IMG/VR virus record: IMGVR_UViG_3300037440_000749
Location: 1 to 63,794 of that record
Length of the DNA stretch: 63,794 bases
DNA from: a virus
Lineage: Duplodnaviria > Caudoviricetes
Direction: 5' to 3' (one strand)
Positions 1,363 to 49,211 of the stretch are shown piece by piece. A program made the position numbers and the translations under genes. Numbering within the stretch: the stretch's first letter is position 1; each line of letters begins with the position of its first letter. Under the pieces are notes generated by a model. That model was not told the DNA's origin. It saw nothing but the letters and a program-made list of their open reading frames with translations, and searched no databases.

Positions 1363-1385
1363 CCCTATTTCCCCTTGAGGCGCGC

Positions 1386-2648: not shown

Positions 2649-2650
2649 TC

Positions 2651-2905: not shown

Positions 2906-2953
2906 TTAGCATTTATTGGCAAAAAAGTGACAAACTGTCAGAAAGGTGACAAC

Positions 2954-3343: not shown

Positions 3344-3346
3344 ATC

Positions 3347-3947: not shown

Positions 3948-3978
3948 CGCCACCCCCGACACGCTGAAAGGAGCCCCC

Positions 3979-4167: not shown

Positions 4168-4170
4168 CCC

Positions 4171-12385: not shown

Positions 12386-12727
12386 ATGACGCTGCAAATG
12401 CGTTACGACCCCGAGCGAGGCGTCTATCGCGAGTGCCGGTTTTGCGCCGGTTTGGGGTGTCTGGCCTGCCCCGGAGAGGCCCGAAAAGCCTATGATGCAG
12501 CGCAGCCGACCCTCGTGGCCCGGTTCGACATGACGTCCCCGCTCGACCAGGAAACCCTGCGGGCGATCATCCATATTGACCGTGTTCGCCATGCCTTTTC
12601 TCCTGGAGGCGGAGGGCATGATGAACTGGAGGCCGTGGCGCGTGAGAGCTATCTGCACCGACTGCTTCAGGCGTTGCGGACCCGCGTGGCACATACGAAA
12701 CACCTGAGTGGAGGAGGGAGCGCATGA
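12386..12727 (+). CDS. Hypothetical zinc-binding protein
   Basis: CRFCAGLGCLAC; ATGA overlap with the endolysin gene. Confidence 0.65.
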   Translation: MTLQMRYDPERGVYRECRFCAGLGCLACPGEARKAYDAAQPTLVARFDMTSPLDQETLRAIIHIDRVRHAFSPGGGGHDELEAVARESYLHRLLQALRTRVAHTKHLSGGGSA

Positions 12728-13257
12728 CCTCTGAACCGTATTTCACCGCCCTGGGAGCCGTCTTGAAACACGAAGGCGGCTTTAGCGACCACAACGACGA
12801 CCCTGGTGGGGCAACAAACCAGGGGGTCACTCTGGCCACATTTCGCCAGTGGTATGGCGAGCAACAAACCGTCGAGGATCTCCGGCGGATCACCGCCGCA
12901 CAATTGGCTCTGATCTATCACCAGGGCTATTGGGCCGCCTGCCACTGCGACCAGCTGCCTGTGGGCATTGCGTATGTGGTGTTTGACCAGGCCGTTCATT
13001 CCGGCCCACGCCAATCCATGCGCTGGTTGCAAGAGGCGGTTGGGGCCGAGAGGGATGGACTCATGGGGCCGAAGACCCTTACGGCGGTGGGCCAGCATGC
13101 CGCCGGGGACATCATTCGCCAGATGTGCGTCTCCCGGATTCGCTTTCTCCATTCGCTGCACAGCGGCGGCCTCTGGCAGACGTTTGGCCGGGGCTGGCAA
13201 CGCCGCGTTGACGGGGTGTGCGCACGAGGGCTCCAGATGACCTGGGGCGAGGGATGA
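12724..13257 (+). CDS. Endolysin, glycoside hydrolase family 108 with peptidoglycan-binding domain
   Basis: HEGGFSDHNDDPGGATNQGVT, FDQAVHSG, FGRGWQRR. Confidence 0.95.
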   Translation: MTSEPYFTALGAVLKHEGGFSDHNDDPGGATNQGVTLATFRQWYGEQQTVEDLRRITAAQLALIYHQGYWAACHCDQLPVGIAYVVFDQAVHSGPRQSMRWLQEAVGAERDGLMGPKTLTAVGQHAAGDIIRQMCVSRIRFLHSLHSGGLWQTFGRGWQRRVDGVCARGLQMTWGEG

Positions 13258-13418
13258 TGACGCCTCTCACCCGTCTCAGCACCCGCCAGTACCGGCGCCA
13301 GCTATGCCCCAGGACGCCGACCCTCGCCGCCATGCCCTGGTGGTTTCGGGCCCTGCTGATCGCGGCGGGGTATATCGTGGTGGCGTGGCTCGAGGTGGTG
13401 TTTTCCCCTGCTCCGTAG
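13254..13418 (+). CDS. Small membrane protein (possible lysis accessory)
   Basis: One hydrophobic segment; ATGA overlap with the endolysin gene. Confidence 0.45.
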   Translation: MMTPLTRLSTRQYRRQLCPRTPTLAAMPWWFRALLIAAGYIVVAWLEVVFSPAP

Positions 13419-13459
13419 CCCTGCCCGTGCCCAACACACAGAACCCGCCATCATAGTGC

Positions 13460-13488
13460 TTGACAAGCCCGCCGTAGCCGTGTATGGT
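13460..13488 (+). promoter_or_regulatory. Sigma70-type promoter ahead of the exported-protein block
   Basis: TTGACA-N17-TATGGT in an intergenic gap. Confidence 0.65.
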
Positions 13489-13546
13489 GTGCATGCCTCT
13501 GTCTTTGTGCGTGTGATCGCCATTACGCTCTGCCATGGGAGGTCCT

Positions 13547-14338
13547 ATGCCTTGTGTGTTGCTTGCCTTCACGCTGCTGCTTCTGTGGCCTGCCTTTGCT
13601 GTCGCCCAAACCTCCTGCTTGCTGGCCTGGCAAGCGCCACTCACCATGGAGAACGGCGAGCCACTCACCCAGGTAGATTTCTACACAGCGTATCAAAGCG
13701 ACAATGCTGTGTTTATGACCTCAGTCGTGACAAAAATTGATGGAGACGCGGTAACGCAGGCACTCCCCTGTACGGATGGGCAGTATTTTTATCTGACCGC
13801 CACGGCCTGTACCAATCCCATGGCGCAGACAGGGTGCCAAGAGAGCAAACCTAGCAACGTGATACAGGCCCAAAAGCCTCTTGCTGTCACGATCCCCAGT
13901 CCGCCGACGCTGATTGTCATTGACCTGGGGCCTTCACCGGTACCCGTAGAGCCCCCGCCCGACCCGATCACCATCCCTAACGTAGGCTACTACCTCTTGC
14001 TGAGTCCTCATGCCGACCGGAGGGAACCTGTCGCGCTCGATGGGCAAGTGCTCTCGGGCACGGTGTATGTCTTTGCTGAGCGCGTGGTACATCTGGCTTT
14101 TCAAGAGCCTCCCGCCATCACGCGGGTGAACTTCTGGCTCGTGCCTCTGCCTACGGCCAGTAATCCGTATCGTAGTGAGAATGGGTATCCATACGATCTG
14201 GGCGGAGGGAGCGCCACACAAGCCGATCCCTGGGACACGCGCATGCTGCCCAATGGCGAGCAGACGATTAGTGCCCGGTTTCTGCTGGACGATGGCACGC
14301 GGGAAGAGGTGAGTGCCACCGTCACGGTGGCGAATTGA
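13547..14338 (+). CDS. Exported protein with FnIII/Ig-like domains
   Basis: Signal peptide; LAWQAP...YFYLTA...ESKPSN FnIII-like pattern, Pro-rich linker, Ig-like WDT...NG C-terminal domain. Confidence 0.7.
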   Translation: MPCVLLAFTLLLLWPAFAVAQTSCLLAWQAPLTMENGEPLTQVDFYTAYQSDNAVFMTSVVTKIDGDAVTQALPCTDGQYFYLTATACTNPMAQTGCQESKPSNVIQAQKPLAVTIPSPPTLIVIDLGPSPVPVEPPPDPITIPNVGYYLLLSPHADRREPVALDGQVLSGTVYVFAERVVHLAFQEPPAITRVNFWLVPLPTASNPYRSENGYPYDLGGGSATQADPWDTRMLPNGEQTISARFLLDDGTREEVSATVTVAN

Positions 14339-14351
14339 GGAGCAGTGACTC

Positions 14352-14702
14352 GTGACAAGCAAAGCAGTGAATAGCCAGGAAGTGGAGAGCAGCGACTTCG
14401 GCCTACGCATCGCTGGCGAATGCGCCATGCGTGATGACGGCCGGGAGATACCCATCCAGCCGACGTATCCCTCCCTTCGCCAGATCGTCCACCTCGGTAC
14501 TCAAATCGTCCAGGGGCAAGTGGTGTCGCTCTTAGGGGAAATTCAGGCGCATGAAGTCACAGCACGACGCCAGATTGCCACGCCCTTCCCCGATCTGATG
14601 GCACTGCCGGGAATCCTGGAAGCGAGCCAGGCACTGCTCCAGCATCATGAGGCGGTGCTGAAAGCCAAGGCCGCCTGGGAGGGAGAGAAGCGTGCCGTAT
14701 AG
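14352..14702 (+). CDS. Hypothetical protein (start uncertain)
   Basis: ORF fills the gap; its 5' part overlaps heptamer repeats. Confidence 0.45.
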   Translation: MTSKAVNSQEVESSDFGLRIAGECAMRDDGREIPIQPTYPSLRQIVHLGTQIVQGQVVSLLGEIQAHEVTARRQIATPFPDLMALPGILEASQALLQHHEAVLKAKAAWEGEKRAV

Positions 14703-15660
14703 CAAGACCGTTGACGTCGACGAACTCCTGCTCTGGACTGGTGGGGCCACCGGGGATATCCCCTACTGGAACGGCAGCGCCTTTGTGCCCAGCGTGCTCA
14801 CCTATGTTGACGCGGCGCAAGATGAGCTGGTGGTCAACGAGGCCGGGGCTGATGTCGACTTTCGTGTTGAGGCGGTGGGGCAGACCAATGCGGTGGTTGT
14901 GCAGGGGAGTGATGGCAAGGTAGGCATTGGGACAGGGAGCCCCTCCGATCTCCTTGATGTGCGGGGCGATGTGTGGTTTGGGCAGCATAGTACGGCGTCC
15001 TTGATTAAGATAGGGGCAATCGGCAATAACAATTTTGGTTCATTATCAAAGTTTTCTCTCAAGTTTAATGGGAGGCAGACGCTAGATTACAATGTCACTG
15101 ATGGCTCCCTCGATATCAGTGCGCCTGTGCTGAATTATATTCGCCTGAACCACCGCACTATAGTGGGGACAGGCACTATTGTCGCAGGCATTGGCTTGGC
15201 AGTGATGAACGGCAAAGTCGGCATTGGGACAGTAGCCCCTGGCACTCAGCTCACCGTGTATGAGTCCACCGCGCAGACCAATACGGTCCAGAATCTCTTC
15301 ACCCTGAATCATTTCTCGACGGCAACGCCCGTCGCCGGATTCGGCGGGGGCATCAGCCTCAAGCTGAAATCGTCCGTCACGGCGGACCGCGACGCGGCGG
15401 CTATCGAGTGGCTCTGGAATGTCCCGACCGACGCCGTGCGCCAGGGCGAGCTGATCCTGTCCGCCTACGACACGGCGAAGCGTCGCGGCGTCCATATCCG
15501 AGCGAGTGGAACTGCTCCAGAGCTAGGGTTTCTGGAGGCTGATCCTGTGCCTCGTCAGGCGCATATTGCTGACGCCAGTGGCGGTGGGGGCAATATCGAC
15601 GCTACGGTCAACGCCATCCTGGACGCGTTGGAAGCCTTTGGTCTGGTGGCGACGTCGTAA
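14692..15660 (+). CDS. Fibre-like structural protein
   Basis: VVNEAGADVDFRVE, two GKVGIGT..P motifs, C-terminal VNAILDALEAFGLVA typical of phage fibres. Confidence 0.7.
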   Translation: MPYSKTVDVDELLLWTGGATGDIPYWNGSAFVPSVLTYVDAAQDELVVNEAGADVDFRVEAVGQTNAVVVQGSDGKVGIGTGSPSDLLDVRGDVWFGQHSTASLIKIGAIGNNNFGSLSKFSLKFNGRQTLDYNVTDGSLDISAPVLNYIRLNHRTIVGTGTIVAGIGLAVMNGKVGIGTVAPGTQLTVYESTAQTNTVQNLFTLNHFSTATPVAGFGGGISLKLKSSVTADRDAAAIEWLWNVPTDAVRQGELILSAYDTAKRRGVHIRASGTAPELGFLEADPVPRQAHIADASGGGGNIDATVNAILDALEAFGLVATS

Positions 15661-15661
15661 G

Positions 15662-15755
15662 AGAGTGGATAGTCGATAGCGAAGAAGTGACTAGCGGGAA
15701 AACTTCACGCGATGCTGTCCTGGCTATCCCCTATTCACTCGTCACTATTCACTGT
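15662..15755. repeat. Inverted heptamer-repeat element
   Basis: AGTGGAT/AGTGACT units followed by complementary CTATTCA/CTCGTCA units. Confidence 0.75.
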
Positions 15756-15772
15756 TTCCAGAAAGGAAACTC

Positions 15773-16036
15773 ATGGCCACTGAAGCCCGGAAAAATGATT
15801 TTGCGACCCTGGTCCGCCAGCAGACGCGGGTGTTGTGGGACACGTATCACAGCCTCCTCAGCCTGCAAGATGAGTGGGATGCACAGGACTACACCGCGTC
15901 GCTCGCCTCTGGCCTTGCTGGTGAGAATGCGGAGATCACGGTAGGCCAGCTCAGCTCCGTGGTCTTTGACACGACGAATGCGGTCAAGGTGTTAATGGAT
16001 GGAGGCCACGCGACGAACGTCACGAATATTTTGTAA
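15773..16036 (+). CDS. Hypothetical (putative structural) protein
   Basis: AAGGA RBS, clean ORF. Confidence 0.7.
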   Translation: MATEARKNDFATLVRQQTRVLWDTYHSLLSLQDEWDAQDYTASLASGLAGENAEITVGQLSSVVFDTTNAVKVLMDGGHATNVTNIL

Positions 16037-16048
16037 GGTGGATGACCT

Positions 16049-16825
16049 ATGTCCGGAGAAATCGTTATTGACGCTCCTGCCCTCTCGGGTAGTACGCTCT
16101 TCGCCCTGCTCTTTAATGATACCGGGCTGGTGTGGGATAGCGTCGATGAGCAAGACGAGGTCTTCACTGATGCGCAGATTGGGCAGTACGACATTGCGCT
16201 GGCAGAACAGGGCACCGCCAGTGGGCTCTTCGCTGGCGATATGCCGGCCAATGTGCCTGCAAGCATGCGCTGGTATAGCGTGCGACGGCAAGCCGGGGGA
16301 AGCCCGGCGGTCACAGACCCGGCCGTTGGCGGCAGTGAAGTCCGCGCCTGGACGGGCACGGCCTGGTTAGATCTGAATACGCTGGGCGGCGCCACTGCCG
16401 AGGCAGTCCGGGAGGAGATAGACGCCAATAGCACACAACTGGCGGCGATTATTGTCGATACCGAGGATCTGCAGAACCGGGTGCCCGCCGCCCTGACGGG
16501 CGCTGGCCACATGCCGAGTGACCTGCTGGCCTTGAACGGCGTGGTCGCCTCTGCGGCGAAGCTCGAACGGTCCGCCTCAACGATTGTCACCGGCACGGTG
16601 GATACCGGAACCTTTAGCCCGACGGCGACGGAGTTTGAGGCCGATGACATTACCGAGGCCACGGCCGATCATTACAACGGGCGGGTGATTCTGTTCACGT
16701 CAGGCGCCTTGCTTGGCCAGGCGACGGACATTATGGATTACGCGCTGGCGGGCAGTAACGGGCACTTCACGGTGACGAGCTTGACCGAGCCGCCCGGCAA
16801 TGACGCGACGTTTGTGATTGTGTAG
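16049..16825 (+). CDS. Acidic putative structural protein
   Basis: Beta-rich acidic ORF; DHYNGRVILFTSG...DY C-terminal module. Confidence 0.7.
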   Translation: MSGEIVIDAPALSGSTLFALLFNDTGLVWDSVDEQDEVFTDAQIGQYDIALAEQGTASGLFAGDMPANVPASMRWYSVRRQAGGSPAVTDPAVGGSEVRAWTGTAWLDLNTLGGATAEAVREEIDANSTQLAAIIVDTEDLQNRVPAALTGAGHMPSDLLALNGVVASAAKLERSASTIVTGTVDTGTFSPTATEFEADDITEATADHYNGRVILFTSGALLGQATDIMDYALAGSNGHFTVTSLTEPPGNDATFVIV

Positions 16826-16826
16826 C

Positions 16827-17060
16827 ATGGCAGGCATCACCCGACTCAGCCCATCAGGCACGCCTGGCGTCCCGTATAGCCCCTTCGCCGGGAAGAGCAG
16901 TAGTGGAGGCCCCAGACCACCGGGGCAGTATACGCGCTTAGGGGTGATGGCGACTCCCACGCGGCGTTACAGATCGTTCAGTCAGGAAGGCGGGGACGAG
17001 GGCATAGAGAGCCTCTATATCCTGTTACGGCGGCGACGACTCGGCAGGACGGCCGAATGA
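16827..17060 (+). CDS. Small hypothetical protein with internal duplication
   Basis: TRL...TP...Y..F occurs twice; poly-Arg tail. Confidence 0.6.
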   Translation: MAGITRLSPSGTPGVPYSPFAGKSSSGGPRPPGQYTRLGVMATPTRRYRSFSQEGGDEGIESLYILLRRRRLGRTAE

Positions 17061-17067
17061 GGATGTC

Positions 17068-17460
17068 ATGGCAGTCAGCCCGACGGTGTTAAGCGAGGAC
17101 GAGTATCACGTGCTGCTGCAATGGACGCTCACCAGTGCGGACGATGTGGCGTTGCCCTCACCGGCGTTTCCCCATCGCAGTGAGAAGACCGTCGACGTTT
17201 ACGAAGCCGGGGGGAGCGGTTGGAACGGCGCGACCGTGGACGTGCAGGGCGACCTGAACAAGACGGGCACGGGTGAGTTTAAACTGCTCAACTCGATTCC
17301 GCACACGCAAGACTTACGTTTTACGGCGGACTCGACCAAGCAGTGGGTCATTTTGCCCAACGTCACCCGCCTCAAACCCGTCAGGAGCGCCGGCACGTTG
17401 GGCACCGCCGGGGTCATCGTCAAAGTGCTGGTGGTATCATACGTCAAACGTTTTCGTTGA
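17068..17460 (+). CDS. Hypothetical beta-sandwich protein
   Basis: GAGG RBS; GATVDVQG motif. Confidence 0.7.
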   Translation: MAVSPTVLSEDEYHVLLQWTLTSADDVALPSPAFPHRSEKTVDVYEAGGSGWNGATVDVQGDLNKTGTGEFKLLNSIPHTQDLRFTADSTKQWVILPNVTRLKPVRSAGTLGTAGVIVKVLVVSYVKRFR

Positions 17461-17471
17461 AAGGAAACGGC

Positions 17472-17993
17472 ATGGAGCAATCCCCGCCACTTGACCTGGC
17501 TGACACCAAGGCCCTCCTGGCTGAACTGGATGCGTTCTTACGCCTGTTCCATGGCATAGCGCGGGTGCGGGCGTCGCTGGGCACGGAGATCCAGACGCTC
17601 CTGACCCAGGTGCGCGACCGTGAAACGATTCTGGCGCAGTGGGACGCCAGGATTCAGGCCGCGCAGCAGCAGGCCCAGCAGGAAGAATCGGCCGGCAAGC
17701 ACAGCCTGGCCCGACTGCAGCAGGCCATTCACGACTTGCGAGGCACCTACGAGACCAGGCGGGCGGCAGCGGAGCACACGCACGCGGAACAGTGCCAGGC
17801 GTTGCAGGACGCCTATGGCGAGGCTGCCGGAGCACACGCGGCGCGGCTTGAGGCACTGACCGTCAGCGAGCACGAGGCGCTGGCCCAGCATGAAGACCGC
17901 CTGGAAGGCATGCGGCGCGCCGAAGCGCGCGCGCAGGAGCGGCTCAAGGACATTGAAACCCGGCTGGCGTCCTTACGCCAGGCCGTAGGCTAA
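17472..17993 (+). CDS. Coiled-coil protein
   Basis: Ala/Glu/Gln/Arg-rich heptads; AAGGA RBS. Confidence 0.7.
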   Translation: MEQSPPLDLADTKALLAELDAFLRLFHGIARVRASLGTEIQTLLTQVRDRETILAQWDARIQAAQQQAQQEESAGKHSLARLQQAIHDLRGTYETRRAAAEHTHAEQCQALQDAYGEAAGAHAARLEALTVSEHEALAQHEDRLEGMRRAEARAQERLKDIETRLASLRQAVG

Positions 17994-18004
17994 CGGAGGT
18001 GCGT

Positions 18005-20902
18005 ATGAGGGTTCGCGTCTTGGCGCTGGTGCTGCTCTTCCCCGTGCTCGTTGCAGCCCAGGGACGGCAAAAAGTTCTCCATGCCGTCCCTGGCACGGGT
18101 GACGATGCGAGCGCCAACGGCATTGTACTTCGGACCGAAGACTCCTCGGTGGTCACCGTGCAGAATACCCGCGCAGGGAGCTGGGACGGCACGCTGACCT
18201 ATGAAGTCACGGTTGATGGCACGAACTGGCTTGGCATGCTGTGTCGCCAACTGAGTGACAATACGTATGTGGCCAGCACGTCCAGCGCCGCGAATATCGT
18301 GGAGTGCCCGGTGGCCGGGACATGGGGATTCCGTGCCCGGATCTCCGGCCAAAGCACCGGCAGTACTGTCGTGACGGCCGGGGTGGCGCAAGTCGCGCGG
18401 GTGGCGCCGATGTCGAGCAGCATGGAGGACTTTGGGACCCTTGTCGACGGGGGCTTGTGTGTCTACGAGGAGGCCGCCGGCGAGGTCAACTGCGATGCCA
18501 GTCCTACGGCTGTTGGTGCCGATAGTATTGGCACCGCCGAACTCGATGACGGCGCGGATACGCCTGGCTCCGGCCAGTATCTGCGCGTGGATACCGTCGA
18601 TCAAGCCGGAATTGAATACCGGACGGTGGCTGAGGTGCTGGCTGATATTGGCGCCGAGTCAGCCACCAGCAACGATTTTGACCCGGATCGTCTTGCGGGT
18701 GATACGGGTGACGATAATTTGATTGATGACGCGATCATTGCCGCGTCCATTGCCAGGGACAGCGAGTTGCCTACGCAAGCCTCCCTCAGCGTTGATGACC
18801 TGATTAGCCTCTCTGGCGTGGCGGAGGGCGCGACCCATCTTTCAACGTTCACGGGCGACACGCTCACCGACAATGTCACGATTAAGGACGCCTTGCAGCT
18901 CCTCGAAACCGCCGTCGAGAGCGCCGGGGGATTGAGTACAGACAGTGTGGGGACCGTGGAACTCGACGATGACGCCAATACCCCCATTGCCGGCGATGTC
19001 GTGATTGTCGAAGCTGGCGCAGCCTCTTTTGATTACCTCACTCTTCATGCCGGCACGAATCTTGCCGCTGACCTGGAGGAAGAGACGCACGCCAGTGAGC
19101 ATGCCGAAAATGGCAACGATGAACTGCTGGGCGAAACCCTGGGGACGGCGTGTACTGAAAACCAGATCCTCAAAGCCAACGCGACCGGGGGGCTCGCCTG
19201 TGCGGCTGACGAAACCGGCAGCGGTGCACTCGGGGCCAATCTCTCCAGCACGACGAATGACATCCTCAGCGACACCGGCAGCGTCTTGCTGGGCGGCACC
19301 GGCAATATCTTCAACGAAAATTTGGTGTGCGATTTTGAGCTCGAGGATGAAATCGCTTGCACCAGTACGACGGGCGCCACCGTGTTCAATCTCCAGACGT
19401 TCACCGTGGAAGCTGGCGCCTTCTCGGGAAATATTACGGGGAATGTTACGGGAAACGCTGACACGGCCACGACCGCCTCCACGGCTACGGCGCTGGCGGC
19501 AAACCCAACCGATTGCGACCCAAACGAATTTGCCACAACCATCGCTGCCAGTGGCAACCTGACGTGCGCCGCCCTCACCGATACGGACGTCCCCAACGAC
19601 ATTACGGTTGACCTGGCCACGCTCGCCTCGACAGTGACGGTCATCGACTCCACCGACGCTACCTCGTTCGTTGCCCTGTTCGATTCCGCTACAGGCACTT
19701 TGCCAGTCAAGACCGATGGCGCGCTGCTCTACGACGCGACGACTGGCGGCCTCAGCGCGACGTCCTTCACGGGTGCGGTCACTGGAAATGCCTCAACCGC
19801 TACGGCCCTGGTGGACAATCCCGCTGACTGCGACCCCAACGAATTTGCGACCACGATTGCCGCTGATGGAGACTTGACCTGTGCCGCCATTCAGGACGCT
19901 GACATTCCAGCAACTATAGCCCGTGACAGTGAATTACCGACGCAAGCAACGTTGAGCGTTGATGACCTGATTACCCTGTCTGGCCTCGCCGAAGGCGCGA
20001 CGCACCTCGGGAGTTTCACGGGCACGACGATCACCGACATGCTGCCTATCAAGGATGCCTTGCAGGAACTCGAAACTGCGATAGAGGCGGCTGGTGGGCT
20101 CGGCGCTGACAGCGTCGGGACTGACGAACTCGATGACGGCAGTGATGTGCCTGCGGTGAATGAACTCGTACGTGTCGATTCCGCGTCGAGTGGGCAGCTC
20201 GAATATGGCCCCTGCACGATGACGGACACTGGAGCAATCGACTGTCCCGCGCCTGCCACTGATGGCGGAGCCATGACCCTAAAGGAAGGGCAGGACGATG
20301 GCACGGATACCTTTAGCATTTCCATTCCTGCCACCGGCTTGACGGCCACTGTTGACCACGAAATGAATGCGAGTGGTGAACTGCCGGTCTCCGTCATTCA
20401 GCGGACTGGCTCAGACTCCACCGTGGTGACTGGCACGGCGGGGACCAGTGGGAATCTCGTGCAATGGAACGCGAGTGGGGGCGTCGCCGATAGCACGGTG
20501 GCAACGGCTGATGTGCTGACCACAGCAGAGAGTGGAGTCCCCGCAGGGGGCATCCCCGTCGTAACCAAGGTCGCGACGACAAGTTATACCATTGGGACGA
20601 CAGATGCTGCTGAGGCTTGGGGTGGTGTGATTTATGTGACTGGCGCGGCAACGATTACTGCTCCAGCTATTGCTGCTGGCATGTCGTTTACCGTGATTAC
20701 AATCGGTGCTGTTGCTGTGTCTGTTGATGTCAACGCGAGTGATCTCATGACGTTGGACGGTGTGGTTCTCGATGACGGCGACAAGGCCACCAATACAAGT
20801 ACGACTGGAGATATCCTCGTCTGTGTGTATAGAAATGTCAGTGGATGGTATTGTGCTTCAGGCAGTAACGATGGCGATCTCTGGATAGACGGAGGCGCCT
20901 AG
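18005..20902 (+). CDS. Large exported acidic fibre-like repeat protein
   Basis: Signal peptide; duplicated IARDSELPTQ...VGT.ELDD and GNA.TAT...CDPNEFATTIAA.G.LTC modules. Confidence 0.85.
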   Translation: MRVRVLALVLLFPVLVAAQGRQKVLHAVPGTGDDASANGIVLRTEDSSVVTVQNTRAGSWDGTLTYEVTVDGTNWLGMLCRQLSDNTYVASTSSAANIVECPVAGTWGFRARISGQSTGSTVVTAGVAQVARVAPMSSSMEDFGTLVDGGLCVYEEAAGEVNCDASPTAVGADSIGTAELDDGADTPGSGQYLRVDTVDQAGIEYRTVAEVLADIGAESATSNDFDPDRLAGDTGDDNLIDDAIIAASIARDSELPTQASLSVDDLISLSGVAEGATHLSTFTGDTLTDNVTIKDALQLLETAVESAGGLSTDSVGTVELDDDANTPIAGDVVIVEAGAASFDYLTLHAGTNLAADLEEETHASEHAENGNDELLGETLGTACTENQILKANATGGLACAADETGSGALGANLSSTTNDILSDTGSVLLGGTGNIFNENLVCDFELEDEIACTSTTGATVFNLQTFTVEAGAFSGNITGNVTGNADTATTASTATALAANPTDCDPNEFATTIAASGNLTCAALTDTDVPNDITVDLATLASTVTVIDSTDATSFVALFDSATGTLPVKTDGALLYDATTGGLSATSFTGAVTGNASTATALVDNPADCDPNEFATTIAADGDLTCAAIQDADIPATIARDSELPTQATLSVDDLITLSGLAEGATHLGSFTGTTITDMLPIKDALQELETAIEAAGGLGADSVGTDELDDGSDVPAVNELVRVDSASSGQLEYGPCTMTDTGAIDCPAPATDGGAMTLKEGQDDGTDTFSISIPATGLTATVDHEMNASGELPVSVIQRTGSDSTVVTGTAGTSGNLVQWNASGGVADSTVATADVLTTAESGVPAGGIPVVTKVATTSYTIGTTDAAEAWGGVIYVTGAATITAPAIAAGMSFTVITIGAVAVSVDVNASDLMTLDGVVLDDGDKATNTSTTGDILVCVYRNVSGWYCASGSNDGDLWIDGGA

Positions 20903-21693
20903 TGAGACGGTCTACATACCTCTATTATACTTTTCTGGTCCTGTGTTGCTGTAGCCTTCTGGCGTTTCCTGTTGGTGCCTCTCTCACCCAACAGTCTCTG
21001 ATGAAGGTTGCGAAAAGTCGCGTCCTCGCTGGAGGCGGGGAAACATGTGACCTCCTCGCCGACGACTTTGAAAACACCGACGGCGTCGAGCTAGTCACCC
21101 ACACCTGGACGGCAGATGGCACGACCTGCCTGACTGATGCCTGTGAGATTGATACAGCAAGAGCCAATGATGATAGTGTTGGTGGGCAATTTGGCAGTGC
21201 GGGAAGCAGCAGCGGCTTGCTGAATCACAGCGTCGACACCACGGCGTATCGGCTGGTCAAAACATTTGCTGAGCAGGCTAGCGGCACGTTTGTGGCCGAA
21301 TTTGCCATCCAATTTGACACGACCGCTACGACGAACAACGAGCAGTTGTTCAGTTTGACGGATGGCGCTCATGTCTTCGACGCCACCACAATGGTGTTTT
21401 TGCGTCGGCAAGGGACCGCGTTGCAGATCCGTACGCCGCCCACGGCGACCTGGGAAACGATCTGCGGGACGCCGTGTTTCACCGCTGACACCTGGCACCG
21501 TGTCGAAATCGAGGTGAATGCGACCGCTGAAACCTTCAACCTGTGGATTGATGACACGCAACGCGCCACAGATAAGCCCTTTGCCGTGTCAGGGGATATC
21601 GATCGAGTGACCATCCAGAAACGATCTTCCGCTGATGCGCAACCCTCGACATGGATTGATACGCTGTGTATCTACTCAGGAGCACGCCCGTGA
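20902..21693 (+). CDS. Exported lectin-like (beta-jelly-roll) protein
   Basis: Signal peptide; DDFE...DTWHRVEI...WID pattern; paired Cys. Confidence 0.7.
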   Translation: MRRSTYLYYTFLVLCCCSLLAFPVGASLTQQSLMKVAKSRVLAGGGETCDLLADDFENTDGVELVTHTWTADGTTCLTDACEIDTARANDDSVGGQFGSAGSSSGLLNHSVDTTAYRLVKTFAEQASGTFVAEFAIQFDTTATTNNEQLFSLTDGAHVFDATTMVFLRRQGTALQIRTPPTATWETICGTPCFTADTWHRVEIEVNATAETFNLWIDDTQRATDKPFAVSGDIDRVTIQKRSSADAQPSTWIDTLCIYSGARP

Positions 21694-22964
21694 AACAACT
21701 GCTCTGTCTGCTCTGCCTCCTGTGTTTTCCCCTCGTCGTCTGGGCGCAGTTTTCCTCTTGCGGCACCGATTGCCTGGAAGCGGATACGTGCAGTCAGGCC
21801 AATGTGGCTGCCACAGTGACAGCGGCTGATGCCGGGGATACGGTGCAGATTCCGGCAGGGAGTTGCACGTGGAGTGATCCAGTGGTAGTGACGAAGGCAC
21901 TCAATATTATTGGTGCTGGGCAGGGCGTCACGATCATTACCCAGAATGGCCAGTCCGATGGCACCTGGGATCTTGATCAAGCGTCTGGAACGCTGAGCCT
22001 CGGGGAAATGACCATTAACGGTACCATTGGCGGCTTTAATGGGAGCATCCAGAGCATCAAGCAGGACAATACTCGGGTGCACCATATGACCTTCGATTTT
22101 TCCACAGACCGGCATGCTATCCGCGTCAATGGCAACCGCAGCAATGTCCTCATTGACAATTGCATCTTCACCGGGTCCACCCGAGGGGTGAATATTTTCG
22201 CCAGCTCGGCCTACTGGACGACGGCGGCTGAATATGATCCAGGCACCAGCAAAGGCGTCTACATCGAGGAGAGCACCTTCAATAGGAGTGGCGTGGAAGT
22301 CGTTGATCTCAATGCTGGGGGCGCCTATGTCTTCCGGCACAACGACGTCCCCAATGGCGGCAATGTGATTATCCACGGCGCTGATTCTGGAGACCGCTCA
22401 GGCGGCTACGCCGAGATTTACAACAACACCTTTGATAATCCTGGCGCAACCAGAGACTTCCCGATGAATTTTCGTGGTGGGAGCCAGATTATTTATAACA
22501 ACACGATCACGGGTCCCTTCAATCAACCGATCAAAACACAAAACTATCGTTCGTGCTATACGGAAAACACGGGCCTATCGTTTCACGCGAATAATCAGAA
22601 CGACTGCGAGCATGATTCGGTGAATGTGCTAGACGGTGACGAGAGTCCCGAGGATAATGGGTGGCCATGTAAAGATCAAATTGGACGCGGACCGAATCAG
22701 AGTAGCAAACCCAGCTATGAATGGGACAACACCCACAACGGTGGCAATGCCAACTTTAACGTGAATAATCTGGGTGGGTGTAGCAACCCATCAACCAATG
22801 ACCATATACAAAGCGGGCGGGATTATTTCACCGACACAGAGATGCCCGGCTATACGGCCTATACCTATCCCCACCCACTGCAGGGTGAGCCACCCGAAGA
22901 CCCCCCGGCGCCCAGTAGTCCGATGCTCGAAGGCGTGCAACTGCAAGGAGGACGATTACCATAG
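21690..22964 (+). CDS. Exported right-handed beta-helix (pectin-lyase-fold) protein
   Basis: Signal peptide; GDTVQIPAGSCTW, IIGAG..T, Asn ladders (IYNNT), YTYPHPL. Confidence 0.85.
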   Translation: MKQLLCLLCLLCFPLVVWAQFSSCGTDCLEADTCSQANVAATVTAADAGDTVQIPAGSCTWSDPVVVTKALNIIGAGQGVTIITQNGQSDGTWDLDQASGTLSLGEMTINGTIGGFNGSIQSIKQDNTRVHHMTFDFSTDRHAIRVNGNRSNVLIDNCIFTGSTRGVNIFASSAYWTTAAEYDPGTSKGVYIEESTFNRSGVEVVDLNAGGAYVFRHNDVPNGGNVIIHGADSGDRSGGYAEIYNNTFDNPGATRDFPMNFRGGSQIIYNNTITGPFNQPIKTQNYRSCYTENTGLSFHANNQNDCEHDSVNVLDGDESPEDNGWPCKDQIGRGPNQSSKPSYEWDNTHNGGNANFNVNNLGGCSNPSTNDHIQSGRDYFTDTEMPGYTAYTYPHPLQGEPPEDPPAPSSPMLEGVQLQGGRLP

Positions 22965-23024
22965 AGGAAGGAGCCCTATCACCCGACGTGGCCTTTTCAC
23001 CCTGACGATAAACGGAGGAATAGC

Positions 23025-23681
23025 ATGCATCGTTCACGTGTCCTGCTGGCCAGCCTCGCCGGCGTGCTCGTCCTGCTCACCACGGTCATGGCCGCGACGT
23101 TCCGCGTCACGACCACGTATCAATTCGCCAGCGGCCTGCAAACGGACAGCATTACCAGTCTGAGTGGCACCACGGGCGATAGCGCCATGGCCTTGCCAGC
23201 GAACAGTGTGGGGGGCGCCGAAGTCTCCGGCATGCCCCTGACGCTCACCTTTTGCGGCCAAGCCGACGAAAACGGCACCATCTATCTGTCGCCCACCAGC
23301 GGCATCAACGGCGTCGATTTTGCCGATGGTGCGGATTATTCCATTGCCGGCACCGCCTGTGATGGCCTGGACGGTGCGACGGAGGGCACGCAAGACCTGG
23401 TCATTTTCCCCGAGGTGGCCTTCAAGGTGATGGGCATGTACTGCATGACCAACGGCACCCTGGGGGCGTCCGAGGCGCTGACGTTGACGTTGCGCAGTGC
23501 CGCCGCCAATGTGACACCGTCCGTGAGTTGCGCTGTGGGCGAAGCGGCCACGAGCTGCCGTAGCCTGAGTGGGACAACGACCGATGTCGCCGCGGGTGCC
23601 GCGGTCGCGGTGCGGGCGGTCCAGGTGAGCAATAACTCCGATGACGATCTGTGGTGTCAGGTTGCCATCATGCTGCAATAA
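23025..23681 (+). CDS. Exported Cys-paired protein
   Basis: Signal peptide; six Cys; GGAGG RBS. Confidence 0.75.
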   Translation: MHRSRVLLASLAGVLVLLTTVMAATFRVTTTYQFASGLQTDSITSLSGTTGDSAMALPANSVGGAEVSGMPLTLTFCGQADENGTIYLSPTSGINGVDFADGADYSIAGTACDGLDGATEGTQDLVIFPEVAFKVMGMYCMTNGTLGASEALTLTLRSAAANVTPSVSCAVGEAATSCRSLSGTTTDVAAGAAVAVRAVQVSNNSDDDLWCQVAIMLQ

Positions 23682-23690
23682 GGAGTCTCC

Positions 23691-24119
23691 ATGACCGAAA
23701 CAGGCCCGATTGGCACCTTACAGCGCCGTGTCCGAGAACTGGACGCGCGGCTGGACGCCCTCGAACAGAGCGACACGGTGCGCCCCATGCTGTCAGACGC
23801 CGACAAAGCCGCCTTTGTGCAACAGGTCTATGAAGGCGTAGTGCAGGAGCTGGTGCAGCGCACCCCGACCGCAGCGGCGGAGCTTGGCCAGGTGCGCGAT
23901 GACCTGAGCGACATCGCCGGCAAACTCGAACAGCGGCTCTTTCGTCTGGAGACGCAGGTGCAGGCCACGGACCGCGCGTCACTGAATATCGGCCCACTGC
24001 TCACGGCGCTGCGCGGCGACAAACGCGCAGCACAAGGGCTGGTGTTGTGGGCCAAGCGGACGCAGGGAGGGACACGCGGGGCGTTGGTAGAGATCGTGGA
24101 AGCTCTTATAGGGCTGTAA
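23691..24119 (+). CDS. Coiled-coil hypothetical protein
   Basis: AAGGAG RBS. Confidence 0.7.
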   Translation: MTETGPIGTLQRRVRELDARLDALEQSDTVRPMLSDADKAAFVQQVYEGVVQELVQRTPTAAAELGQVRDDLSDIAGKLEQRLFRLETQVQATDRASLNIGPLLTALRGDKRAAQGLVLWAKRTQGGTRGALVEIVEALIGL

Positions 24120-24122
24120 AAT

Positions 24123-45040: not shown

Positions 45041-45943
45041 ATGGTCATGTTTTCGAACAGCAATCCCGTCATTTATGCTGGTGACGGCGCCAAGACGACG
45101 TTTCCGCACCCCTGGTATCTGCTCGACACCAGTCATCTCATTGTCCAAATTATCAGCAACGATGGCACGGAATCGATCCCAGCTTTGGGCGTGGATTTCA
45201 CGGTAGCCCCCGCCCCGCCTGCCCTGGGTGGGACCATCACGTTTCTGTCGCACGCCATTCCCCAGAGCGGGGAGAACGTCATGCTGGCCCGCCGCCTCCT
45301 CCCGGAACAACCCACCAGTCTGCCGGTCACCAGCTACATCGATCTGCCCACCATTGAGCTAGCGCTGGACCGGCTTTCCATGGTGGACGATACGCAGGAA
45401 GAAGCCCTCAGCCGGCGACCCGCCTTCCGCTTCAGCTCGCTCAACAATATCCGCAATATGGTGATTCCGCAACCCGTGGCCCTCAAGCTGCTCCAGTTTA
45501 ATGCCACGGCGGATGGCCTGTCCTTAGTGGACCCGGCAATCATCACCGCCACGCCCAGCGCGGTTTCTCAGCTCGTCTATACCCAGGGCAGCGTCAGCGT
45601 GACCCCCGACGCCAGCGATATTGAGGAAGTCGCCAGCGCCTTTGTGCCCGCCGGCATTATTCTGCTGGGTGTCGTCGCCTATGTGCTGACCACCCTCGGC
45701 GACGCCAACGGCCTCACCACCTGGAGCCTCGGCACCAACGCTAACCGCAGCAAATGGGGCAGCGGCCATGCCCGCACCGCCCTGACCCAGACCAACGCCG
45801 GGCAGTTTCTCGGCTATCAGGGCGGCGAGCCCGTGCCCACTGCGCTGGATGTCGTGCTCACCGCCGACGCCGGCGCCTTCGAGGATGGTGAGGTCATTCT
45901 GACCTACACGGGCTTTGCCATCAGCCCGGCAGTCTCTGTATAG
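45041..45943 (+). CDS. Tail fibre adaptor (T7 gp17 N-terminal-like)
   Basis: YAGDGAKTTF, GGTITF, IELALDRL motifs. Confidence 0.85.
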   Translation: MVMFSNSNPVIYAGDGAKTTFPHPWYLLDTSHLIVQIISNDGTESIPALGVDFTVAPAPPALGGTITFLSHAIPQSGENVMLARRLLPEQPTSLPVTSYIDLPTIELALDRLSMVDDTQEEALSRRPAFRFSSLNNIRNMVIPQPVALKLLQFNATADGLSLVDPAIITATPSAVSQLVYTQGSVSVTPDASDIEEVASAFVPAGIILLGVVAYVLTTLGDANGLTTWSLGTNANRSKWGSGHARTALTQTNAGQFLGYQGGEPVPTALDVVLTADAGAFEDGEVILTYTGFAISPAVSV

Positions 45944-45958: not shown

Positions 45959-48175
45959 ATGACTCGCGTATTCACGTCTCTGCTGGCCGCCCTGCTCCTC
46001 CTCACCGGCATAGCCCAGGGCGCCACCAATTTCGGCAGCGCTACCGTCACCGAAGAACTGCAACAGCAGCTCGGCGCCGGGCAAAGCTCGTACCTCTGGG
46101 ACGGCTGTCAGCCTGCCGTGCCCGTTTCCTCTCTGACCATGACCAGCCTCACCTGCAAAGCGCTGGTGCAGGACAGCAGTTCGCCCCCCCGGCAAATCCC
46201 CGTCGTGCAAGGGACCATTGCCCTCACCCTGCCTGCCGTTGATGGCACCTACTGGATTGCCCTGACCATTGCCGATCTCGGCAGCCCCGGCGGCAGTTGG
46301 AGTCGCGAAAGTAACAAGCGCACGCACTTTACCTACCAGCTCAGCGCCAGCCATCCTGCCGAGCCCAGTGACGGCATGATCGTCGCCAAGGTCACCGTCG
46401 CCAGCAGCATCATTAGCGAGGTCGATCTGTACGGCATGCGGGTCATCACCGGCCCCCTGACGATTAGCGCCTCGCAGGACTGGTACGGCCTGGCGGTGAT
46501 TCAACCGCGTGGCAAGATTACCGTCGCCAGCGGCATCACGCTGACCTTGCACACCTGCCCCGATGCCAGCCCAGGCCAGCAGATTTTCGACGCCGATAAT
46601 GTCACCACCGGGCTGGCCGTGCTCAACTGTGACACCATCTGGGTCGACTGGTACGGCGTCATGGGCGATGATGCGACGGATGGAGAAGTGCCGCTGGAGG
46701 GGCTGTGCGCCACTTTCAGCACCCTCAAAACCAGCTACCCCAAGCCCCGCCACATTCGCTTTCGTAGTGGCTCGACCTACCGCTTGGGGAATGTCGCCTG
46801 TCAAATCCCTGACGGCGTGCCGAACACCCTCTTTACCGTCGATCTCGGCAGCAGCATGATCAAGGCGACTGAGGCCGGGATTCTTTTCGATTTTAACCCG
46901 ATAGGCGATTGTACGACCACGCCGTTCTACACCAATGCCCTGCGCTTCTTCCGCCTGGTGGGCAACTCGGCGGTGATCGACGGCGATGCGATCACCGGCG
47001 CCCTGGACGTGACGGCCGTCAAGCTCTACGTGACGCGGGATGTGCGCGTGAGTGGCATAGTCTTTCGCGATCTGAAACTCGGTGTCCAGGGATGCTTCCA
47101 GGACAATACGTTATTTCAGTACAATCGCTTTATCAACGTGATTAACGGCATTGTCCAGCTCAACGACTGGCCGGAAGATCCGAGCTGGAATGTGAGCAAT
47201 GCTGCCAACGGGTTCACCACCTCCCAGTTTTTCCAGAATACCTTCAATCTCACACCCGATGTTGCCGAGCGGGCCATTCATATTGAAGGCGCGACCTCGG
47301 CCCTGTTTCAGAATAATGTGTATGCGGGGAAGGGGACCGATGGGGTGCTTTGCCACGTCTTGCTCAACAATACGCACACCATCCAAACCGCCCAGGGCAC
47401 CATGTTTATCCGCGAGCACCACGAAGCGCTGTCCAATGAGGGCCGCTACCTGTGCCTCAACGATACCGGCGGCATGGGCTGGGATGCGCCGGTGGTTATC
47501 GGCGGGCACTGGGAGTTCCCGACCGCGTGCAACGACGATTGCACCGCCATTGTCGTCAATAATGCCACGGGCCTGGTCATCGAGGGCCTGGCGGTCAGCT
47601 GCTCGGCCGGCACCAATATGGTCACCGTGCGCCTGCGGAACAGCACGACCAACGCGGTCATCGGCGCCAATGATTTTGACAAAGACTGCACCCCGGTCGA
47701 CTGGGATGGGACCATGGTGCGCGAGGATTTCCAACGCCTGCCGAGTACGGTGTTGTTCGCCACCCCGGTCCGCACCGAAGAGGACAGCACAGGCACCACG
47801 TACTTTGACCGGACGGTCACGCTCTCGGACATGTCGGTGACGTTGGATACCAGCCGAACCAACAATGTCGGGGTGCTCTCCCCGCAGGTCATCCCGCGGC
47901 GCTGGTTGGTGCGCATCGTCTTGACGGACTCAGACTGGAGCATTGGCACCACGGGCAACTACCCCCGCCCGAGCATCATCCTCCGGACGGATGCGACCAA
48001 ATCCACCGTTGCGGACGCCTTTGCGTGCGGTGTCAACGGGATCACCAACGATGACTGGCTGTTCTGCGAGGGCAGTGTGATCCCTGACGCGAATGGCGAT
48101 TTTCTGGTTGTCGTGGACGCCAGCGGCACAAACACCATGCTGGCGGCGATCTATCTTATGGGCTATGAACAATAG
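45959..48175 (+). CDS. Tailspike-like beta-helix protein bearing a signal peptide
   Basis: PGQQIF, VDWYG..GD..TD spike motif, Asn ladders, many Cys; N-terminal signal peptide. Confidence 0.8.
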   Translation: MTRVFTSLLAALLLLTGIAQGATNFGSATVTEELQQQLGAGQSSYLWDGCQPAVPVSSLTMTSLTCKALVQDSSSPPRQIPVVQGTIALTLPAVDGTYWIALTIADLGSPGGSWSRESNKRTHFTYQLSASHPAEPSDGMIVAKVTVASSIISEVDLYGMRVITGPLTISASQDWYGLAVIQPRGKITVASGITLTLHTCPDASPGQQIFDADNVTTGLAVLNCDTIWVDWYGVMGDDATDGEVPLEGLCATFSTLKTSYPKPRHIRFRSGSTYRLGNVACQIPDGVPNTLFTVDLGSSMIKATEAGILFDFNPIGDCTTTPFYTNALRFFRLVGNSAVIDGDAITGALDVTAVKLYVTRDVRVSGIVFRDLKLGVQGCFQDNTLFQYNRFINVINGIVQLNDWPEDPSWNVSNAANGFTTSQFFQNTFNLTPDVAERAIHIEGATSALFQNNVYAGKGTDGVLCHVLLNNTHTIQTAQGTMFIREHHEALSNEGRYLCLNDTGGMGWDAPVVIGGHWEFPTACNDDCTAIVVNNATGLVIEGLAVSCSAGTNMVTVRLRNSTTNAVIGANDFDKDCTPVDWDGTMVREDFQRLPSTVLFATPVRTEEDSTGTTYFDRTVTLSDMSVTLDTSRTNNVGVLSPQVIPRRWLVRIVLTDSDWSIGTTGNYPRPSIILRTDATKSTVADAFACGVNGITNDDWLFCEGSVIPDANGDFLVVVDASGTNTMLAAIYLMGYEQ

Positions 48176-48185
48176 AGGAGGACGT

Positions 48186-48509
48186 ATGGCTACACTACTC
48201 TGGGTGGCTCTCGTTGTGCTGCTCACCACCGGACTGGCTTGCGCGCAGAGTCGACAACTCGTCGTGCAAGTCACCTTGTCGGAAGAACTCTCTGAGGCAC
48301 TGCGGGTACAGTATGCGCACCTGACTGATGCGCAAATTATTCAACTCTACGCGCAGGGGTTGACGGAGAGTGCCAGTAAAGTCGTGGAAGAAAGTAACGC
48401 CAGCGCCAATCGCGTGTTGGGTCAACGCTTGCAACGGGCCACGACGCTCACGACCCAGCAAAAGGACGCCATTGAAGCGATCCTGGATACACAACCCAAT
48501 AGCCGTTAG
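48186..48509 (+). CDS. Small exported protein
   Basis: Signal peptide ending ACA-Q. Confidence 0.7.
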   Translation: MATLLWVALVVLLTTGLACAQSRQLVVQVTLSEELSEALRVQYAHLTDAQIIQLYAQGLTESASKVVEESNASANRVLGQRLQRATTLTTQQKDAIEAILDTQPNSR

Positions 48510-48518
48510 GAGTTTCCC

Positions 48519-48968
48519 ATGCTAAAGAAACTGGGCGTTGTCCTCATGATCATCGCACTGGTGGGCGGCGGCATCACAGCCTGTACGCCGCAGCAACCCA
48601 GCCCTGTCCAGATGATTGAACGCCATCAGCTGCTCCTGGCGCTGGTGCTGACCCTGGCGACAGATGAATTTTTGAGTCGACACCAGGCCCTTGCCCAACC
48701 GTTTGCCGAGATTAGCGCGGCGGCAATTGCCACCGTGAGCACTACCGTCCTGACCGTCGATGCGCTCACCGAGTTTCTCCGGCAGGAATTGCGGCAGCAT
48801 GATCTGCAGCACCGACTCAGCGCCGTGTTGGATCTGTTCCTGGAGATTCTGCGAACGGAAGTGAATGCGTTGTTGGTCAAACATCAGCTAGGGGCGCCTG
48901 AGGAGATTCGGGTGCTCTCGACGTTGGTCCTCACCGTCATTCATGACTCGGCGGTCCGGTTCTTGTAA
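48519..48968 (+). CDS. Lipoprotein (possible spanin or lysis accessory)
   Basis: Lipobox ITAC after a hydrophobic helix. Confidence 0.7.
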   Translation: MLKKLGVVLMIIALVGGGITACTPQQPSPVQMIERHQLLLALVLTLATDEFLSRHQALAQPFAEISAAAIATVSTTVLTVDALTEFLRQELRQHDLQHRLSAVLDLFLEILRTEVNALLVKHQLGAPEEIRVLSTLVLTVIHDSAVRFL

Positions 48969-48986
48969 AAGGCAAAGGAGTCTCTC

Positions 48987-49211
48987 ATGATAAGAAGCCC
49001 AGTCAAAACTGGATGGAAATCCACTGAATTCTGGTTTACGCTGCTGGCCAATGTGGCGAGTATCGTGACCATGCTCGCCGATGTGCTACCGCCGGAGATC
49101 GGCATCCCGCTCATGACCGGACTCAATGGCCTGTACGCCATTCTTCGGACCCTGATCAAGGCGCCGGAGATCACGACGCTGGTGGAGGTCGTGGAGAAAG
49201 ACACGCGCTAA
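48987..49211 (+). CDS. Putative holin
   Basis: GWKSTEFW motif, two transmembrane segments, charged tail. Confidence 0.7.
   Translation: MIRSPVKTGWKSTEFWFTLLANVASIVTMLADVLPPEIGIPLMTGLNGLYAILRTLIKAPEITTLVEVVEKDTR

Follow-up and report, generated by a model that had tools for sequence, protein, structure and literature searches.

A late gene block with predicted Sec-type leaders on fibre, lectin-like and beta-helix proteins in a podovirus genome

The block, its gene starts and its leaders

The stretch studied here, called the window, is the whole of the IMG/VR virus record IMGVR_UViG_3300037440_000749 (63,794 bases, linear, completeness estimate 95%), and its credible genes all lie on the + strand. 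Between the endolysin gene (12724-13257) and the genes for the small and large terminase subunits (TerS, 24123; TerL, 24454) stands a block of 11 open reading frames (ORFs). Five of them (13547, 18005, 20902, 21690 and 23025) begin with Sec-type leaders, as an earlier note made from the letters of this DNA had claimed. They encode an acidic protein with Ig-like leads, a fibre of 965 amino acids (aa), a candidate lectin-like protein, a predicted beta-helix enzyme and a 218-aa protein.

The upstream border is formed by the endolysin (12724..13257, +), a leaderless protein that combines a GH108 domain (PF05838, 2.8e-28; phrog_315, 1.4e-43) with PG_binding_3 (1.5e-08). A sigma-70-like promoter match, TTGACA-N17-TATGGT, follows at 13460..13488 (+). 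The earlier note took it for the block's own promoter, and with 10 of 12 consensus positions matched it is indeed the best of the 10 such sites within 12500-24600, where shuffled sequences give 4.1 +/- 2.2; it is a consensus match only. A GGAGG or AGGAG lies 6-8 nucleotides (nt) upstream of all five leader-including starts, and the next in-frame starts downstream have no such ribosome-binding site, which argues against true starts that would leave the leaders out. Independent gene calls agree: products stored in public protein sets begin at 18005 and 21690, and the Atlas holds the product of the 13547 start letter for letter.

Leaders were judged by one fixed hydrophobicity and cleavage-site heuristic rather than by SignalP, and the cut sites given here are our reading. 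They are MPCVLLAFTLLLLWPAFAVA before QTS for 13547 (AVA/Q), MRVRVLALVLLFPVLVAA before QGR for 18005 (VAA/Q), MRRSTYLYYTFLVLCCCSLLAFPVGA before SLT for 20902 (VGA/S), (M)KQLLCLLCLLCFPLVVWA before QFS for 21690 (VWA/Q) and MHRSRVLLASLAGVLVLLTTVMA before ATF for 23025 (VMA/A). In all five the hydrophobic core spans 10-15 residues and small residues occupy -3/-1, and in four a lysine or arginine precedes the core; the exception is 13547, whose n-region holds neither. The heuristic marks 5 of the 11 block ORFs as leader-like and 7 of the 74 in the rest of the window (p = 0.007, one-sided Fisher test); across eight unrelated loci taken as controls it marks 5 of 129. Three of the seven outside the block are on the minus strand and are probably not genes; 48093 and the lipobox-bearing 48519 are part of the likely lysis cassette, and the last two, 9484 and 45959, are candidates additional to the five of the earlier note.

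The five leader-bearing products are acidic (isoelectric point, pI, 4.05-4.54) and rich in cysteine (Cys). Across the late ORFs, those with a leader hold 67 Cys in 3172 aa and the leaderless ones 26 in 7573 aa; the leaderless proteins of the block and the anchor fibre encoded at 45041 have 0-1 Cys each. Within the block, the division into Cys-rich and Cys-free proteins tracks the leader exactly.

It is highly improbable that these hydrophobic N-termini are not working export signals, so that the proteins would fold in the cytoplasm and the N-termini would serve another purpose or be an artefact of annotation. The use of a heuristic and the missing basic n-region of 13547 lean that way. Against it stand the ribosome-binding sites at the five starts, with no downstream alternative, the exact coincidence of leader and Cys content, and the recurrence of the n/h/c layout with small -3/-1 residues in hundreds of relatives. 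The same features (starts, leader and Cys division, leaders on homologues) give good sequence support to the earlier note's proposal that the block proteins are exported and oxidatively folded, and they point to export and leader cleavage; as a whole, that note's interpretation is supported in part.

The 965-aa fibre, its end domain and their recurrence

The leader-bearing fibre (18005..20902, +; 965 aa, 16 Cys, pI 4.05) runs from its leader through an N-domain of about 130 aa and a series of fibre repeats (a 248-nt unit twice, a 99-nt unit twice and a 52-nt unit three times) to a terminal gp10-like domain. Its 16 Cys form eight pairs with a spacing of 10-21 residues, bearing out the closely paired Cys described earlier, and two of the pairs lie within a repeated CDPNEFATTIAAxGxLTC unit. 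The repeat modules match 15 cyanophage records (annotated as tail fiber, structural protein, or predicted or hypothetical protein), and among the PHROG families labelled 'virion structural protein' the protein matches phrog_24595 at 2e-13. A PDB sequence search with it gave nothing significant. Judged by its sequence, the protein is a true phage-type fibre, and the fibre-type repeats reported before are real.

Metagenomic relatives have only the repeat modules in common with it, over 4-19% of the query. By eye they fall into two kinds, one leaderless and Cys-poor, several of its members with Mtd_N, and one leader-bearing and mostly Cys-rich; hydrophobic N-termini occur in 31 of 62. The N-domain (residues 20-165) has one relative among 5.8 billion proteins.

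The conserved terminal domain (20516..20899, +; motif LDGxxLDDGDKATNTSxxGD) takes up the last ~110 residues of the fibre. It is 50-60% identical to C-termini in otherwise unrelated IMG/VR phages with a G+C content (GC) of 0.38-0.49. A model built with AF2 from seven sequences (predicted local distance difference test, pLDDT, 77) was compared with known structures by an aligner independent of Foldseek. It aligns with the Pa223 capsid spike at Z 12.0, the KP1 baseplate protein at 10.9, residues 58-187 of CBA120 TSP4 at 10.5 and the Solidus tailspike at 9.3; another phage protein matches at 10.1, and unrelated rows stay at Z <= 4. Foldseek agrees (top E 1.3e-06), BFVD yields 346 viral matches at E <= 0.001, and the neighbours in the Atlas are viral. 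By this model, the domain has a fold like that of T4 gp10 and the XD region of CBA120 TSP4.

Searched with a profile of this domain, a set of 1.84 billion representatives yields 1192 clusters, of which 253 reach E <= 1e-30. The domain sits at the extreme C-terminus in all 150 clusters listed, and leader-like N-termini occur in 95 of the best 149; leaders are thus present on homologues as well. The pattern LDDGDKAT has no match in 185,579 species genomes. An acidic motif, D-x-D-x-D-x-N...(K)GGTN, stands directly after the leader in many family members (P0196, P0204, P0236, P0247, P0253, P0255, P0258 and P0289; also 8699-10321 of contig L011) and may bind calcium or serve in docking; the window fibre does not have it.

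The arrangement seen in the window recurs elsewhere. The end domain was found in 22 IMG/VR contigs, some of them near-identical to one another and one with no ORF called over the match, and in 14 the matching ORF bears a leader. Leader ORFs then cluster beside the end-domain gene: they make up 9 of 18 ORFs in L018, stand five in a row in L021/L022 and four in a row in L028, and number four each, not all adjacent, in L024 and L025. Contigs with a leaderless tip protein have 0-1 leader ORFs. Like the block in the window, these runs include proteins of the beta-helix kind (Beta_helix/NosD in L010) and of the LamG kind (Laminin_G_3 in L015). Some contigs have no leaderless gene at all among the fibre-like genes seen. 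The most extreme case is L018 (36-10949, GC 0.48), with leaders on 8 of its first 9 ORFs, including proteins of 718, 613 and 577 aa. A distant backbone relative, L009 (portal 27% identical), has three leader ORFs between TerL and portal, and the two large ones hold 12-13 Cys. When phage contigs are reached through the beta-helix family instead (L052, L056, L062), the relatives again lie in runs of leader proteins with 5-29 Cys that contain collagen with CBM5_12, LamG, and a beta-helix protein with a papain-like protease and a lectin. Searches of the window proteins against the ORFs of related loci with phmmer and jackhmmer recovered the end domain only.

In nearly all contigs of this kind, the gene directly 3' of the one for the tip fibre also encodes a leader, and its product has a short recurring motif after the leader (MKVAKSR in the window; MKVAKTR, VIARKN and similar elsewhere). 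In the window this gene (20902..21693, +) overlaps the fibre stop with its start and encodes a 263-aa protein with 6 Cys in the mature part. The lectin-like domain proposed for it earlier finds a match to SO2946-like_C (17.5 bits, E 0.0042) that falls below the cut-off of 27, and nothing lies above cut-off; its positional counterpart in L015 matches Laminin_G_3 at 1.9e-36. The protein is a candidate LamG/lectin-like partner of the fibre.

Next comes the leader-bearing 424-aa protein (21690..22964, +), a right-handed beta-helix protein judging by its homologues. It has no Pfam match itself, and TIGR03805 scores 22 bits against a cut-off of 141.5. Its 652 homologues place it at 25-56% identity to the family; several, at 34-58% identity, carry PF13229, PF12708 or PF22842, and through those with PF13229 the beta-helix of the earlier note is upheld. 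It shares a conserved C-terminal PGYTxYxYPHPL motif with this secreted family, and 100 of 120 listed relatives have hydrophobic N-termini. By sequence, an exported polysaccharide-active enzyme is predicted. Many relatives come from long contigs of cellular origin and some from contigs of phage size; distant ones occur in cellular exopolysaccharide biosynthesis clusters (L044, L045 and L047) beside glycosyltransferases, Polysacc_synt_3, a pyruvyl transferase and UDP-galactopyranose mutase, the one in L045 fused to FG-GAP repeats. The family alignment matched one 3-kb contig of a metagenome-assembled genome among the 185,579 species genomes; sequence searches with the protein found no relatives in IMG/VR, no match in cultured phages and nothing significant in the PDB. 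The idea that this is simply a host gene from a wrongly binned contig was rejected because the gene sits inside a co-oriented phage operon between endolysin and terminase. That the block might hold ordinary host-secreted proteins with no phage link is contradicted for the fibre, whose sequence is of phage type; the beta-helix family does occur in cellular loci, though on phage contigs too.

The two remaining leader-bearing proteins stand at the ends of the block. The first (13547..14338, +; GGGAGG upstream) is an acidic 263-aa protein with 4 Cys in the mature part and a pI of 4.27; the FnIII/Ig-like assignment made for it earlier corresponds to fn3/Big_7 leads in the Atlas, all under 0.9, and is kept as a lead only. 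The last (23025..23681, +) is an acidic 218-aa protein with 6 Cys, known by its leader and composition, whose single-sequence AF2 model (pLDDT 37.6) predicts only the leader helix.

Leaderless genes fill the space between. The 322-aa protein (14692..15660, +) has 0 Cys and is weakly tail-fibre-like (phrog_18345, 1.8e-05; phrog_9942, 2.9e-05); it has no relatives in IMG/VR, cultured phages or PDB sequences, and would be a candidate adaptor built in the cytoplasm. The earlier note grouped it with 16049 and 17068 as signal-less fibre-like genes, which its weak matches allow, but these two have no family match: 16049..16825 (+) encodes a very acidic (pI 4.05), Cys-free protein of 258 aa and 17068..17460 (+) a Cys-free protein of 130 aa. 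Leaderless proteins of 116 aa (14352..14702, +) and 87 aa (15773..16036, +) match no family, and one of about 173 aa (17472..17993, +) is helix-rich by eye with a far sub-threshold SMC-like match only. Downstream of the block, directly before TerS, lies a leaderless 142-aa protein (23691..24119, +) with only a sub-threshold coiled-coil Pfam match. The description of the whole block as fibre-like phage proteins therefore fits the 965-aa protein and applies only loosely to the others, the beta-helix family being cellular as well.

A proposed two-compartment assembly and its alternatives

In the textbook account, assembly of tailed phages is wholly cytoplasmic. The combination of secretion leaders and paired Cys suggests that the host-recognition proteins of this phage probably fold outside the cytoplasm. 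The reading we prefer, to which we give a probability of roughly 0.5, is that the block proteins are exported, oxidatively folded and then joined to the particle at lysis. We think it about an even bet that the block, together with gene 45959, supplies outer host-recognition and sugar-cutting proteins that are built in a separate compartment from the particle.

Two genes outside the block bear directly on this reading. The first (45041..45943, +) encodes a leaderless, Cys-free tail fibre of 300 aa with an N-terminal anchor of T7 gp17 / Dpo type (phrog_1640, 8.6e-12; Dpo31/Dpo36 N-terminus, 5.4e-11); by sequence it is the sole recognisable tail-docking fibre in the window. Directly after it, and directly before the likely holin and spanin genes, comes the second (45959..48175, +), for an acidic 738-aa protein with 16 Cys that bears a leader by the fixed heuristic and has no relatives in IMG/VR, cultured phages or family scans.

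The proposed sequence of events is as follows. Late in infection the five block proteins (the 965-aa fibre, the lectin-like protein, the beta-helix enzyme, the Ig-like protein and the 218-aa protein) would be made with Sec-type leaders, cross the inner membrane and lose the leaders. They would fold in the oxidising periplasm, where the paired Cys would become disulfides. Capsid, tail and the leaderless Cys-free proteins (the anchor fibre 45041 and the products of 14692, 16049 and 17068) would meanwhile assemble in the cytoplasm. After holin, endolysin and spanins have breached the envelope, particles would come into contact with the periplasmic proteins, which would dock on the leaderless adaptors. 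The gp10-like end domain of the fibre is probably a docking platform for the product of the next gene, as branching domains are in branched tailspike systems. Of this scheme, the genes and their starts, the leaders, the Cys division, the fibre repeats, the end-domain fold and the recurrence in other phages are observed; export, disulfides, docking and capture at lysis are inferred.

The last step has a parallel in known branched receptor-binding complexes. For Klebsiella podophages (KP32/K11/KP34), docking through a branching domain and a conserved docking peptide has been demonstrated (PMC13352976, PMC8262889). The end domain of the window fibre has, by its model, the same fold as CBA120 TSP4 XD and T4 gp10, and the next gene is kept in position with a short post-leader motif that resembles the docking peptide of a receptor-binding protein 2 (RBP2). 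Unlike in those systems, the domain stands at the C-terminus of a leader-bearing fibre and not in a cytoplasmic anchor protein.

A parallel for the exported set may lie in phages of Cellulophaga baltica. Phage phi10:1 (KC821618) has leader-like N-termini on four consecutive proteins, gp091-gp094, for which GenBank gives the note 'structural protein, annotation based on experimental MS/MS proteomics analysis' (MS/MS, tandem mass spectrometry). Its gp094 has 317 aa, the length of the BFVD entry R9ZYK6, which is a fold match of the window end domain; the two are equated by length. In phi46:3 (KC821622) five consecutive genes, gp079-gp083, have canonical leader-like N-termini and adjoin membrane proteins and a GH108-type lysin, and gp079-082 are annotated as structural by similarity. 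The leader cassette is common to different Cellulophaga phage families at 92-94% nucleotide identity and moves between unrelated phages of one host in the way that receptor-binding modules do. Like the window, these phages have 4-5 consecutive leader-bearing late genes that include pectate-lyase-type and fibre-type proteins; unlike it, their proteins have few Cys (0-2) and the host is a low-GC member of the Bacteroidota. By analogy, phi10:1 lends indirect support to a virion location of the exported set. No discussion of the Cellulophaga leaders was found in print, and full-text searches of the literature turned up no account of tailed-phage fibres with Sec leaders.

Several observations weigh against the joining of exported proteins to the particle. 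The virion status of gp091-gp094 comes from the GenBank note only, and the Cellulophaga leader proteins have no detectable sequence homology to the window proteins. Tail-anchor families have no match in the five exported proteins or in 45959 in Pfam and PHROG scans, and since the phage already has the leaderless anchor fibre 45041, the particle may be able to do without the exported set. Abundant secreted proteins can co-purify with particles. Several leader-bearing members of the end-domain family hold only 0-2 Cys, so disulfides are not general to the leader-bearing class. The 20902 protein and its positional counterparts (L025, L022) show weak homology in pairwise comparison (E 0.011-0.036), and jackhmmer finds none between them. 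The beta-helix family, finally, is mostly cellular and found in exopolysaccharide loci, and a free enzyme therefore fits as well.

This last point leads to an explanation that we hold to be unlikely on balance but serious: the proteins are exported and never join the particle. They would act on the capsule, exopolysaccharide or envelope of the infected cell, or be released at lysis as soluble sugar-cutting or sugar-binding factors, clearing the matrix for progeny and stopping progeny from sticking to debris. The exopolysaccharide clusters with beta-helix relatives (L044, L045) and the hydrophobic N-termini counted above in that family fit such a role, as do the missing tail anchors and the phage's own leaderless anchor fibre. 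The cassette also adjoins packaging and lysis genes and not the tail-fibre slot (in the window, L009, L010 and L025), and release of soluble depolymerase from infected cells is documented in passages of PMC6116005. In the window the 424-aa protein shares motif and leader with the secreted family of exopolysaccharide loci, but its gene is phage-encoded and linked to fibre and lectin-like genes. What speaks for capture by the particle instead is the full phage-fibre architecture of the 965-aa protein, an end-domain fold that is used for attachment inside virions, the annotation of the Cellulophaga leader proteins from virion MS/MS, the exchange of their cassette in the manner of receptor-binding modules, and the contigs in which all fibre-like genes seen carry a leader.

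Improbable in our view is a third fate, in which the exported proteins stay on the envelope of the infected cell and either mask the receptor that the phage itself uses (superinfection exclusion) or attach to cells nearby. The model for it would be the MAT fibres of Bdellovibrio, for which parts of PMC10769870 describe a signal peptide, a beta-rich domain of ~130 aa, a long trimeric phage-like fibre and swappable disulfide-containing tips. The window fibre resembles them in its leader, its putatively beta-rich ~130-aa domain and its fibre with a variable tip and predicted disulfides. MAT fibres, however, belong to the cell surface of a predatory bacterium and the window protein to a phage late operon; the fibre N-domain has one relative only, and no link to MAT can therefore be drawn. 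In phages of Porphyromonas gingivalis, passages of PMC10367356 describe Sec-leader genes with glutamine (Gln) at +1, with no function assigned and perhaps modifying the outer membrane. They share with the window the Sec leader and the Gln at +1 (three of five here) and, unlike the window genes, are not reported there as fibres. Features that would target the outer membrane were not seen: none of the five block proteins has a lipobox, and profile scans found no beta-barrel or type IX secretion system (T9SS) domain. The phage is also a lytic-looking podovirus, with no integrase among the window ORFs scanned.

Use of host Sec before lysis is in itself familiar from exported endolysins, and passages of PMC6116005 treat the signal peptide of fOg44 Lys44 and the signal-arrest-release (SAR) endolysins. 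Those are lysis enzymes and not fibres, and the window's own endolysin is leaderless. Signal peptides have also been counted in rumen Bacteroides phages, according to part of PMC5723332.

Returning to capture at lysis, a wider version of that reading seems possible, at somewhat less than even odds: many tailed phages, this one included, would finish their particles in two compartments, with distal fibres, lectins and depolymerases exported by Sec, disulfide-bonded and captured at lysis, and with the gp10-like domain and the next leader gene forming an exported two-part adhesin. If true, Caudoviricetes would have a new route of assembly, one in which infectivity depends on the Sec and Dsb functions of the host and the timing of lysis is part of morphogenesis. 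Should receptor-binding proteins be routinely exported and oxidised, Sec, signal peptidase and the disulfide machinery would be hidden host factors. Cytoplasmic expression of such fibres, whether for engineering or for structural studies, would give misfolded protein, and pipelines that count a signal peptide against a 'virion protein' call would mislabel them. The question is testable in cultured Cellulophaga phages, and the end-domain family, in which about two thirds of the best matches have leaders, offers a handle for finding such phages.

Lysis genes, structural module and host

Probable lysis genes lie at 48093..49211 (+), assigned by heuristic only and with no family matches: a membrane/leader protein with an internal start, a 149-aa lipobox protein (GGITA/C) that is a candidate outer-membrane spanin, and then a 74-aa membrane protein. 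A small ORF directly 3' of the endolysin (13254-13418) has a hydrophobic helix at its end (WWFRALLIAAGYIVVAWLEVVF) and may encode a lysis accessory protein; lysis genes would then adjoin both leader-bearing loci, at 13.2 kb and at 48-49 kb. The other leader-like candidate, a 124-aa protein of the early/middle region (9484-9858), has a strong ribosome-binding site, the leader MLPLLLVLILSLPLTLVHA before S, and 5 Cys.

The structural module is that of a T7-type podovirus by Pfam and PHROG profile matches, all on the + strand: TerS (24123), TerL (24454, with a second piece at 25467), portal (26338; PF12236, 2e-98), a scaffold-like gene (29318), capsid (30399), tubular proteins (32593 and 33440) and internal virion proteins (36736, 37503 with an SLT domain, and 39660). 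Two overlapping ORFs make up the large terminase: 24454-25473 contains the ATPase region (Terminase_6N), and 25467-26192, which matches phrog_27743 at 7.5e-30, presumably encodes the nuclease. The gene may be split or frameshifted, or the sequence may contain an error. The closest cultured portals are those of Pelagibacter podophages at 31-33% identity, and searches of IMG/VR by TerL and portal returned only distant or unrelated phages and no close relative. The block was found in one sequencing run only, a sediment metagenome that is the probable source, with no RNA run listed.

As to the host, the lipobox protein and the membrane proteins at 48093-49211 suggest a cell with two membranes. Gln follows the predicted cut in three of the five block leaders (AVA/Q, VAA/Q, VWA/Q), as the earlier note had observed, and in three of seven when 9484 and 45959 are added, small numbers in both cases. 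In Bacteroidetes, Gln at +1 of signal peptidase I (SPI) substrates is described as the Q-rule in parts of PMC5837995 and PMC10653852, and by sequence the three leaders give a hint of a Bacteroidota host. The host is not pinned to that phylum because the GC of the window is ~60%, the Gln counts are small and the share in the wider families is low (12/95, 7/92 and 6/28, or 8-21%).

The two ends of the record, 25-4250 and 59015-63794, are diverged copies of one another. The Gp3-like ORFs 25-1362 and 59015-60232 have 92% protein identity, ORFs 3347-3691 and 62457-62915 have 83%, and an AAA_25 protein is present at both ends. The assembly may have wrapped into a strain variant, or the terminal duplication may be genuine; either way the true genome may be ~59 kb. 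Two HNH endonuclease genes, 2927-3343 and 51147-51578, encode proteins that are 38% identical over 60 aa.

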